Of a DNA stretch of 64,000 bases, positions 33,842 through 37,894 are shown one piece after another. The notes beneath the pieces are model-generated. The model worked only from the letters and a program-made list of their open reading frames with translations, was not told the origin of the DNA and did no database searches. The position numbers and the translations under genes were made by a program. The stretch lies in sequence record PZ445440.1. One strand, 5' to 3'. Numbering within the stretch: position 1 is the first letter of the stretch; each line of letters opens with the position of its first letter. The DNA comes from a phage.

Positions 33842-34150
33842 TTACATAAGAAGCAAACGTTCTACCGGAGTACCGTCAACCGAAATTACTTTATCAAGGC
33901 GGAAAGAACGCCACTGACCTAACTTGGTATCGAATGCTCGAACTGATTCACGAGGTTCAGAACGAACTTCTGTTGCCGGATTGTTATTTTCATATTTGAC
34001 TTCAAGTTCATCGCGCGAAGCAAACATAGTGCGTACCTCACCGTTAGCCTTTTCAAATACAACACAATGAACGCCTACAGACAGAATAGTTTTAATACGT
34101 TCACGAAGAACCATAGTTTCTTGTTCAGTTAAAATCATATTATTCACCAC
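33842..34150 (-). CDS. Hypothetical protein, 102 aa
   Basis: ORF between cd and 31; overlaps cd end. Confidence 0.5.
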   Translation of the reverse strand: MVNNMILTEQETMVLRERIKTILSVGVHCVVFEKANGEVRTMFASRDELEVKYENNNPATEVRSEPRESVRAFDTKLGQWRSFRLDKVISVDGTPVERLLLM

Positions 34151-34721
34151 AAAAGTTTCGGATTTGTTCCCAATTCAGAGAACGAAGATTATTACGAGAG
34201 TACTGAATTACTTCAATACCAGCTTGTTTAAGAATGTCTGTCCAATTTTCAGGAGACCGGTCATATAATTCTGCATATACAACCTTTTTAATGCCTGACT
34301 GTGTGATAGCTTTAGTGCAATCAGGACACGGAGAAAGCGTAGTATATAACGTAGCACCTTCAATAGAATTACCTTTACGAGCAGCAAACAAAATTGCATT
34401 CAATTCCGCATGGATTTCGTTATTAGCAGACCATGCACTATGAGCGGCCCGATGTTCTTTAGCCAAAACAAAATTATCTGCCCGTCCAAATGCTGTAGTG
34501 CCTTCTTTATGCCCAGCAACGATGACCGGGCTTGGTTTATTCTTCAACCAACCTTGTTCGGTAGCATGGTCACAACAGTTTGTACCACCTGAAGGAGACC
34601 CATTATAACCCGTAGAGATAATGCGCCCATCTTTTTCAATGACGGCACCAACTTTCCATGAACAACATTTTGATTCTTGAGAAATCAAATAAGCAATTTG
34701 AAGATATGTGCTAGCTTTCAT
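34140..34721 (-). CDS. cd: dCMP deaminase
   Basis: 193 aa; zinc-binding HAE and PCxxC motifs; matches T4 Cd. Confidence 0.9.
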   Translation of the reverse strand: MKASTYLQIAYLISQESKCCSWKVGAVIEKDGRIISTGYNGSPSGGTNCCDHATEQGWLKNKPSPVIVAGHKEGTTAFGRADNFVLAKEHRAAHSAWSANNEIHAELNAILFAARKGNSIEGATLYTTLSPCPDCTKAITQSGIKKVVYAELYDRSPENWTDILKQAGIEVIQYSRNNLRSLNWEQIRNFCGE

Positions 34722-35713
34722 TATTGAACCTTATTAATATAAGTTAACAGCTCTTTAGTTTGTTCCCAACTGATGCACGCATCGGTAACGGAAACGCCAT
34801 AGGACATATTATCAGAAATTTTTTGATTTCCTTCATGTAGGAATGATTCTATCATAATTCCTTTGACCAAATCATTAGCTGCTAAATTTTTACCAATACC
34901 AATTTGATTGCTATAATGCCCATCAGCGTTTGCATGGCTACAGTCAACCATTACATAATGATTCAGACCTACTGCCCTTGCTTTGTTAGAAGCTTCTTGA
35001 ATATCAGAAGAATGATAGTTCGGGCCGTTGGTCCCGCCACGCAATACGATATGCGTATTCTGATTACCTTCAGCTTCAACAATGCCTACAGTACCATCGA
35101 CGTCCATACCCATATACCGATGAGGCCAGGCGGCACTATACATCGCGTCTGTAGCTACTTTAATAGAACCATTAGTTGCGTTCTTGAAGCCTACGCACAT
35201 CGGTAGACCTGAAGCAATTTCACGATGTGTCTGACTTTCAGTCGTACGGGCGCCAATAGCAACCCATGAGAAAATACCAGAAAGATACTTAATCGTGAAT
35301 GGGTCTAATACTTCAGTTGCTAATGGAAGTCCCATACGTAGAAGTTTACGACACAATGTTCGTGCAACTATAAGTCCGTGGTTCATATCAAAACTTCCGT
35401 CAAGATATGGATCATTTACAAGACCTTTCCAACCTACGGTAGTTCGAGGCTTTTCAAAATAAACGCGCATCACTAACAGAACATTAGGAAGACGAGTTTG
35501 AAGTTCAGCCAGACGTTTGCCGTATTCAACAGCAGCAATAGGGTCATGAATTGAACAAGGACCTACAACAATAAGTTTGCGTGGGTCTTCACCGTTCATA
35601 ATCGAATTAACTTGTTCGCGATGAGAAGCCACTTGTGAGGCGTAAGCTTCCGACAAAGGAATAATCTCGGCCAGTTCTTTTGGAGAAATAAGTTTTCCGA
35701 CGACAGGTAACAT
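34721..35713 (-). CDS. 3-deoxy-D-arabino-heptulosonate-7-phosphate (DAHP) synthase, class I (AroF/AroG-like)
   Basis: 330 aa; motifs GPCSIHD, MRVYFEKPRTTVGWKGL, GARTTESQTHRE, VGFKN, VDCSHAN, EGNQ, YGVSVTDACISWE; stop overlaps cd start (TAATG). Confidence 0.85.
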   Translation of the reverse strand: MLPVVGKLISPKELAEIIPLSEAYASQVASHREQVNSIMNGEDPRKLIVVGPCSIHDPIAAVEYGKRLAELQTRLPNVLLVMRVYFEKPRTTVGWKGLVNDPYLDGSFDMNHGLIVARTLCRKLLRMGLPLATEVLDPFTIKYLSGIFSWVAIGARTTESQTHREIASGLPMCVGFKNATNGSIKVATDAMYSAAWPHRYMGMDVDGTVGIVEAEGNQNTHIVLRGGTNGPNYHSSDIQEASNKARAVGLNHYVMVDCSHANADGHYSNQIGIGKNLAANDLVKGIMIESFLHEGNQKISDNMSYGVSVTDACISWEQTKELLTYINKVQ

Positions 35714-35833
35714 AACAATCCTTAGGAGATATAAACAGATTCTGATTCAACAATACCTTTAACCGGATTAGACAGGCTAAGTTGGTAGTGCTCAGATTTA
35801 TGACCATTCTCGATAGTAATGAGATAGCTCTCA

Positions 35834-36098: not shown

Positions 36099-36128
36099 AT
36101 AGTATCACAACTCTACGGTGTTGTAAAC
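36099..36128 (-). promoter_or_regulatory. T4-type early promoter
   Basis: reverse complement GTTTACAACACCGTAGAGTTGTGATACTAT. Confidence 0.55.

Positions 36129-36807: not shown

Positions 36808-36808
<1 letters not shown>
36617..36808 (-). CDS. Hypothetical protein, 63 aa
   Basis: ORF coupled to pseT stop. Confidence 0.4.

Positions 36809-37894
<1,086 letters not shown>

Follow-up and report, generated by a model that had tools for sequence, protein, structure and literature searches.

The phage gene described here encodes a protein that we read, with a probability of about 0.65, as a catalytically competent type I-α DAHP synthase (DAHPS) of Tyr-type (AroF-like) descent with a dismantled site for feedback by aromatic amino acids; such an enzyme would probably run unchecked during infection. 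DAHP synthase acts as the valve through which carbon enters the shikimate pathway, and it is controlled mainly by feedback inhibition. The window, that is, the whole stretch of 64,000 nucleotides that was analyzed (record PZ445440.1), is 100% identical to Escherichia phage ChristianSchoenbein (Bas46, MZ501056.1; Straboviridae, Tevenvirinae, Mosigvirus), where the gene carries the annotation bas46_0048, "putative aldolase" (GenBank MZ501056.1). The gene and the features at its 5′ end are as follows:

34721..35713, minus strand: coding sequence of the type I-α DAHP synthase (3-deoxy-7-phosphoheptulonate synthase), 330 amino acids, assigned from Pfam, NCBIfam and fold.
35620..35713, minus strand: shortened N-terminus, codons 1 to 31, MLPVVGKLISPKELAEIIPLSEAYASQVASH; its first position falls at about AroG Arg9/Ile10 in alignments.
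35555..35557, minus strand: codon of Cys53 in the GPCS motif, a metal ligand and the counterpart of AroG Cys61 by alignment.
35719..35723, minus strand: Shine-Dalgarno sequence AAGGA, 5 nt 5′ of the DAHPS ATG, overlapping the stop codon of the preceding small open reading frame (ORF).

The small ORF in front of the gene ends 8 nt upstream of the DAHPS ATG. No alternative in-frame start (ATG, GTG or TTG) is present between the upstream stop and this ATG, the AAGGA sequence is a good ribosome binding site, and the aligned start position is identical in all 25 homologues of the phage clade introduced below; the short N-terminus is therefore genuine, and a start-codon artefact is ruled out as its cause.

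The protein is a member of the type I-α DAHPS family, and every defining feature that we examined was found in it. It matches PF00793 (E = 5e-75, 252 bits, cut-off 25.5), TIGR00034 aroFGH (E = 2e-128, 428 bits, cut-off 173) and NF009395 (455 bits, cut-off 343), and its best match among solved structures is E. coli AroF (6AGM, E = 5e-105). Scores against the AroG model NF006723 (363 bits, cut-off 568) and the AroH model NF009396 (386 bits, cut-off 463) stay below threshold, and no AroF-specific model was among the NCBIfam output for the protein. With these sub-threshold scores, and with the regulatory features of those enzymes missing, the protein lies outside the regulated AroG and AroH equivalog groups. 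An AlphaFold2 model (monomer, from a 49-sequence alignment) has a mean pLDDT of 90.9 and a pTM of 0.91, and Foldseek superimposes it on type I-α DAHPS structures at TM 0.94 to 0.96 and rmsd ~1.6 Å, with enzymes from N. meningitidis, E. coli (including the Phe-bound 1KFL) and Francisella among the matches (4HSO, 1KFL, 8E0X). The model is a (β/α)8 barrel with an N-terminal helical extension (helices 11-17 and 22-39) and the inserted β6a/β6b hairpin (strands 198-203 and 209-214).

A close examination of the active site was made by aligning the window protein and seven diverged phage homologues with AroG, AroF and AroH of E. coli MG1655. All 16 catalytic and substrate-binding positions are identical to the three host enzymes in each of these phage proteins, namely, in AroG numbering, the metal ligands C61, H268, E302 and D326, the KPRT motif residues K97, P98, R99 and T101, and R92, E96, E143, G163, A164, R165, K186 and R234. 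[quoted passage not shown]

By tblastn, 213 of 50,697 phage records contain the gene. Its place is the same, with pseT (polynucleotide kinase) on one side and cd on the other, in six Straboviridae genera of T4-like Enterobacterales phages (pseT … DAHPS - cd in Mosigvirus, Kanagawavirus, Kagamiyamavirus, Marfavirus, Winklervirus, and Bragavirus). When 5.8 billion proteins were searched, there was a sharp break: on one side stands a phage clade of 25 proteins (one of them a fragment) with at least 55% identity and lengths of 319 to 343 aa, while the matches below ~55% identity are all bacterial and 341 to 388 aa long. Two clade proteins with intermediate signatures are also encoded on T4-like contigs, and identity among the phage-clade proteins is 53 to 77%. 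The neighborhood of the gene in the window comprises the following:

34140..34721, minus strand: dCMP deaminase (cd), whose ATG shares base 34721 with the TAA stop of the DAHPS gene (TAATG).
36808..37707, minus strand: pseT, the gene for polynucleotide kinase, which bounds the conserved pseT … DAHPS - cd arrangement on its upstream side.
36099..36127, minus strand: promoter-like site TTTACA-17-TACTAT, TG-extended, which by consensus match only is a candidate for an early promoter of the T4 type.

The DAHPS gene thus lies just upstream of cd, within a minus-strand run homologous to T4 early genes (nrdAB, denA, rnlA, alc, pseT … cd, gene 31), and the promoter-like site is upstream of the two small ORFs that precede it. 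Since stop and start overlap as TAATG, DAHPS and cd are probably co-transcribed and translationally coupled, and early co-expression of DAHPS with enzymes of nucleotide metabolism is likely from this gene order.

The preliminary description of this DNA had placed the GPCS cysteine at about residue 53, as against 61 in AroG, had put the protein at about 20 aa shorter overall, and had taken the shortening at both ends as a hint of altered regulation. Position and length are as it stated: the cysteine is residue 53 by alignment, against C61 in AroG, C62 in AroF and C60 in AroH, and 330 aa compare with 350, 356, and 348 aa for the same three enzymes, a difference of 18 to 26 aa. The shortening is spread over several places. 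The N-terminus lacks 7 to 9 residues relative to AroF, AroG and AroH, a deletion has removed five residues from the stretch that links the metal-binding His268 and Glu302, leaving 29 where no bacterial relative has fewer than 34, the Glu302-Asp326 segment is 2 to 3 residues shorter than in the host enzymes, and the C-terminus is 4 to 9 residues shorter. The hint from both ends holds for the N-terminus, where a cap motif is missing, and fails for the C-terminus: the tail past the last metal ligand has 15 to 24 residues in the phage clade, inside the bacterial range of 13 to 42, and the tails of some bacterial clades (341-342 aa) are shorter still. C-terminal shortening is therefore uninformative and was ruled out as a regulatory feature. 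The only length changes specific to the phage proteins are the shortened N-terminus, which puts the cysteine at residue 49-53 and not at 59 or beyond, and the internal deletion of five residues.

The missing N-terminal piece corresponds to a motif, [T/L]-[E/N/D/Q]-[N/D]-[L/V/I]-[N/R/H]-[V/I], which is located 9 to 14 residues before a conserved proline (AroG P19) and is near-universal in 98 bacterial relatives. The position of AroG D7 is N, D or E in 98/98 of them, the next position is L, V or I in 97/98, and V or I stands two positions further along in 96/98; in AroG the motif reads D6-D7-L8-R9-I10. At least 16 residues precede the conserved proline in the 98 bacterial proteins against 8 to 12 in the phage clade, and the motif is missing from all 25 phage-clade proteins, whose N-termini are too short to hold it. 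What the window protein does retain, MLPVV…, aligns to AroG I10-K14, which we take to be the β0 strand needed for the tight dimer; the AroG N-terminus is reportedly required for dimer formation. It seems that selection removed the regulatory cap and kept the structural part of the N-terminus. In AroF, N8K and deletion of Ile11 reportedly confer feedback resistance. That the extreme N-terminus contributes to the inhibitor site, as the preliminary description had stated, agrees with the AroG structure 1KFL, where Asp6 and Asp7 help to form the Phe site (PMC6520568). Variants at D6/D7 keep more than 80% of their activity at 0.5 mM Phe, a concentration at which the wild type is almost inactive (PMC6520568). 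The alignment proposed earlier as a check on the regulatory N-terminal residues thus finds them absent from the phage DAHPS, not conserved.

The second part of the feedback site is the pocket itself, which in the window is encoded by three segments:

35273..35305, minus strand: β3-α3 pocket wall, D137-I147 (DPFTIKYLSGI), with I141 (AroG P150), K142 (Q151), G146 (D155) and I147 (L156).
35201..35203, minus strand: codon of Pro171, in place of AroG Ser180 / AroF Ser181 by alignment.
35072..35122, minus strand: β6a/β6b pocket hairpin, H198-A214, with Y200 (AroG F209), G202 (AroG S211) and A214 (T223), from alignment and model.

Published inhibitor-site and feedback-resistance positions include AroG D146, M147, P150, Q151, D155, L175, L179, S180, A202, F209, S211, V212, K214 and V221 (PMC9529685). 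Among these, AroG Q151 (AroF Q152) and AroG S180 (AroF S181) provide contacts to the main chain of the inhibitor; feedback resistance is described for AroG P150L, S180F, D146N and variants at Q151, and Gln151 reportedly contributes to inhibition by Phe (PMC9529685). In 81 non-redundant bacterial relatives these residues hardly vary (Q151 in 81/81, S180 in 80/81, D155 in 79/81, P150 in 76/81, F209 in 80/81). In 18 non-redundant sequences of the phage clade, position 151 is K or R (18/18), 180 is P (18/18), 155 is G or N (18/18), 150 is I (17/18), and 209 is Y (18/18).

A scan of the whole alignment for positions conserved inside each group and different between the groups, with the 25-member phage clade set against 98 bacterial relatives, returned only seven such positions: P150I, Q151K, D155G, L156I, S180P, F209Y, and T223A in AroG numbering. 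Five of the seven fall within a list of 14 pocket positions that we drew up from the literature (Fisher p = 1.2e-6, phylogeny-uncorrected), and the other two adjoin it. On this alignment, nearly all of the functional divergence that separates the phage enzymes from the cellular ones falls in the feedback site. Not everything in the pocket has changed, and D146, the proline at AroG position 147 (= AroF P148), Y152, L179 and the glycine at the specificity position are retained in the phage proteins.

We also noticed that loss of the cap and change of the pocket go together beyond the phage clade. Among 104 single-domain representatives taken from a library of 1.84 billion proteins clustered at 50% identity, a non-canonical pocket occurs with 17/19 short N-termini against 38/85 long ones (p = 3e-4, phylogeny-uncorrected), and this family-wide covariation between the length of the N-terminus and the type of pocket suggests that the two elements, cap and pocket, are lost jointly. 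When a profile of the phage clade was run against the same library of representatives, the phage pocket signature was found in 0 of the 150 matches listed, presumably because clustering at 50% merges the clade with bacterial proteins; the top two profile matches are tandem double-DAHPS proteins, whose two domains inflate the scores. One unrelated phage, Aeromonas phage HJ05 (79 kb), encodes a distant DAHPS with S180P, Q151H and no cap motif. It was the only usable further phage, as unverified, unannotated human-gut "Bacteriophage sp." scaffolds were left out. Contigs labeled "Acinetobacter phage MD-2021a" were discarded as sources of a phage DAHPS: their genes adjoin cobS and phpB, and they look bacterial.

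These observations lead us to the following mechanism. In the bacterial enzymes the inhibitor sits at the tight-dimer interface, where the first residues of the partner subunit (AroG Asp6/Asp7) form a cap over it and Gln151 and Ser180 hold its main chain. In the phage enzyme the cap is deleted up to the junction with the rest of the N-terminal extension, and Gln151 is replaced by Lys, Ser180 by Pro, Pro150 by Ile and Asp155 by Gly, which puts a bulky aliphatic residue at position 150, as in the resistant P150L allele. Because the cap and both side chains that hold the inhibitor main chain are gone and position 150 is bulky, binding of Tyr, Phe or Trp by the phage enzyme is not expected, and we infer from sequence a loss of inhibition.

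A supply of aromatic amino acids leads in the host both to feedback inhibition of its DAHPS isozymes and to their repression by TyrR/TrpR. The phage encodes a homologue of Alc, an inhibitor of host transcription, and so the infected host presumably cannot re-induce its own isozymes. Given the position in an early-gene run, the probable coupling to cd and the apparent deregulation of the enzyme, the phage DAHPS would be expected to keep carbon entering the shikimate/chorismate pathway when aromatic amino acids inhibit the host isozymes. The benefit to the phage, we infer, would be a supply of aromatic amino acids and/or of chorismate-derived cofactors (folate, quinones).

The rewritten pocket is better conserved than the remainder of the protein: within the phage clade, 54% of pocket positions are invariant against 35% for the protein as a whole, with a mean entropy of 0.49 against 1.03. 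This argues against passive decay, and simple decay of an unused pocket is unsupported. Such conservation would fit a structural role of the pocket at the dimer interface, or a new ligand. The second of these leads to the alternative that survives best, although we consider it unlikely: allostery may have been re-tuned, so that the rewritten pocket (Lys142, Tyr200, Pro171, Gly146 and no acidic cap) binds a different effector, for example an anionic intermediate of the shikimate pathway or a metabolite linked to phage nucleotide metabolism, and the enzyme answers to a signal useful to the phage. Its appeal lies in a pocket that is fixed among proteins only 53 to 77% identical, in the direction of the changes, with positive charge gained (Q151K) and acidic groups lost (D155G; D6/D7 deleted), and in the location of the gene among those of nucleotide metabolism (pseT, cd, nrdAB, td, frd). 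The conservation is equally well explained by the role of these residues in the tight-dimer interface and by their proximity to active-site loops, and removal of the cap would expose the cavity to solvent. I141, K142, G146, I147, P171, Y200, and A214 are fixed across at least six Straboviridae genera. That the old amino-acid pocket has been converted to a site for a new effector, or to a permanently "on" latch formed by Lys142, is a tentative idea of low probability; if it is true, it would be a virus-specific rewiring of a control point of the shikimate pathway.

The possibility that this is an ordinary Tyr-regulated, AroF-like enzyme, with neutral lineage drift at the N-terminus and in the pocket and with the phage simply adding normally regulated DAHPS activity, appears more doubtful still. 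The closest solved relative is indeed the Tyr-sensitive AroF, D146 and P148 (AroF numbering) are retained, and at the Tyr/Phe specificity position (AroG S211) the phage protein has G202, the glycine found in Tyr-type enzymes. Against such drift, the inhibitor contacts Q151 and S180 are essentially invariant in bacteria (81/81 and 80/81) and are both replaced in the phage, changes at P150, S180, Q151 and D6/D7 each give feedback resistance in AroG singly, and the differences between phage and bacterial enzymes cluster in the pocket, a pattern that drift would not yield.

Very improbable, finally, is a non-aromatic role, in which the enzyme would act on another aldose phosphate or would drain E4P and PEP so as to redirect pentose-phosphate flux to UDP-arabinose for arabinosylated cytosines: the E4P- and PEP-binding residues are all identical to those of genuine DAHPS, and the argument from an E4P drain is weak on textbook stoichiometry, as E4P is an intermediate of the non-oxidative branch and not a by-product, so that draining it would not raise the yield of pentose. 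The idea has its origin in the finding that Bas46 and its relatives arabinosylate their DNA, a process proposed to tap the pentose-phosphate pathway for ribulose-5-phosphate (PMC13326640), and the DNA-arabinosylation cluster is present in the genome (record 93-100 kb). DAHPS and an arabinose-5-phosphate isomerase co-occur in Mosigvirus, Kagamiyamavirus, Winklervirus and Kanagawavirus, but the two genes part company elsewhere, with Klebsiella phages contributing 25 DAHPS records yet fewer than three records in the isomerase search, and Acinetobacter (57 records) and Yersinia phages carrying the isomerase without DAHPS.

We therefore return to a dismantled feedback site as the preferred reading. 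The preliminary description had suggested that a phage enzyme of this kind may escape feedback by Phe and Tyr. At the level of sequence this is borne out by the lost cap and by the replacement of Q151, S180, P150 and D155; the part of the argument that was built on the C-terminus does not stand, and a conserved pocket would allow for a change of effector. The escape reading is thus supported in part, because the C-terminus is uninformative, the loss of inhibition is a prediction, and the conserved pocket permits an effector change. The clade is, as far as its sequences tell, a phage-specific subfamily of type I-α DAHPS in which the feedback site appears either dismantled or rewritten.

If the enzyme is naturally insensitive to feedback, it would clearly exemplify how a virus can override a metabolic checkpoint of its host, here by removal of the regulatory site from an enzyme that it has borrowed, and a dismantled site would agree with what is generally expected of metabolic enzymes carried by phages, namely that they lose the regulation of the host. 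It would also imply a need of these phages, in the latent period, for products derived from chorismate (aromatic amino acids, folate, quinones). For metabolic engineers, the same enzyme would offer a naturally evolved, compact, deregulated type I-α DAHPS in which the changes have already been tested together by evolution.

Among known enzymes, E. coli AroF (Tyr-sensitive; 6AGM/6AGL) resembles the phage DAHPS most, with 51% identity, the same fold, metal ligands and substrate-binding residues, the β6a/β6b hairpin, and glycine at the Tyr/Phe specificity position. The phage protein differs from it in being 26 aa shorter, in lacking AroF residues 1-9 including the N7-N8-V9-H10 portion of the cap motif, in the exchange of AroF P151, Q152, D156 and S181 for I, K, G and P, and in the loss of five residues from the segment that connects the metal-binding His and Glu. 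E. coli AroG (Phe-sensitive; 1KFL with Phe) is the next comparison, at 47% identity and TM ~0.95. [quoted passage not shown] The KLB31 report contains no analysis of regulation, and our literature search found no paper on regulation of a phage DAHPS, on the missing cap or on the rewritten pocket.

The engineered AroG alleles (D6G-D7A, P150L, S180F, Q151 variants, D146N) offer a parallel of another kind, as the phage naturally combines changes at four positions that engineers mutate singly; in function its enzyme would resemble such feedback-resistant AroG and AroF alleles. The substitutions themselves are not the same, with I instead of L at 150, P instead of F at 180, K at 151, and D6/D7 deleted, not substituted. 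PhzC, a type II DAHPS for phenazine synthesis, is without an allosteric element and is reported not to be feedback-sensitive (PMC8772962). It belongs to another sequence family than the phage enzyme, its missing element is a loop and not an N-terminal cap, and its setting is a bacterial biosynthetic cluster and not a lytic phage, but the logic would be the same: an extra copy of DAHPS, without its allosteric element, supplies chorismate for a dedicated purpose.

Two of the seven fixed differences that separate the phage DAHP synthases from their bacterial relatives lie next to the feedback pocket for aromatic amino acids (residue numbers of E. coli AroG in brackets):

Window 35273-35275, Ile147 codon (AroG L156 to I), one of the seven fixed phage-versus-bacteria differences
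Window 35072-35074, Ala214 codon (AroG T223 to A), Thr in 81 of 81 bacterial relatives

Both positions border the pocket on its flanks and may be part of a signal path or of the dimer interface. A published role for either AroG substitution was not found in the literature.

A further homologue was recovered from Aeromonas phage HJ05, whose 79-kb genome is unrelated to that of the window phage:

L014:2899-4062 (OQ594355.1), DAHP synthase homologue of 387 aa, 37% identical to AroG

Its N-terminus is His-rich and does not contain the cap motif, the N-terminal region that in AroG lies over the inhibitor pocket, and its pocket carries the changes Ser180 to Pro, Gln151 to His and Asp155 to Pro. Judged from its sequence, this protein may be a second, independent instance of a phage DAHP synthase with a non-canonical allosteric pocket. 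Short N-termini (catalytic Cys at residues 50-55) together with non-canonical pocket residues are also found in ten cellular and metagenomic type I-alpha representatives (P0148, P0151, P0155, P0178, P0191, P0199, P0220, P0222, P0229, and P0246), some of them from contigs 0.5-5.9 Mb long and another from a Psittacicella MAG; the natural occurrence of cap-less, pocket-altered enzymes is therefore not restricted to phages. The aroF-bearing contigs filed under "Acinetobacter phage MD-2021a" (L016, CAKLQH020000056.1), in which aroF adjoins cobS and alpha-ribazole phosphatase genes, look like bacterial DNA wrongly named as phage.

The representative library also contained two tandem double-DAHP synthase proteins, P0121 (799 aa) and P0122 (730 aa). 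Both halves of P0122 are degenerate, with GPVSAHD and GPEAIHD in place of GPCSIHD and with KPRT absent, which suggests that its duplicated domains are catalytically dead.

DAHP synthase and arabinose-5-phosphate isomerase occur together in four Straboviridae genera, namely Mosigvirus, Kagamiyamavirus, Winklervirus, and Kanagawavirus. In phages of Klebsiella, DAHP synthase is found largely without the isomerase; those of Acinetobacter and Yersinia carry the isomerase but no DAHP synthase. The window phage has an arabinosylation cluster outside the window:

MZ501056.1 record 93189-99738 (L020:13190-19739), UDP-arabinose/cytosine-arabinosylation gene cluster

At window position 34721, the TAA stop codon of the DAHP synthase gene overlaps the ATG of the dCMP deaminase gene as TAATG, an arrangement suggestive of translational coupling between an aromatic-pathway enzyme and an enzyme of nucleotide metabolism. 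The small ORFs ahead of the DAHP synthase gene have a promoter-like site upstream of them:

Window 36099-36127, minus strand, TTTACA-17-TACTAT with TG extension

This site, a candidate by consensus match only, resembles a T4-type early promoter.
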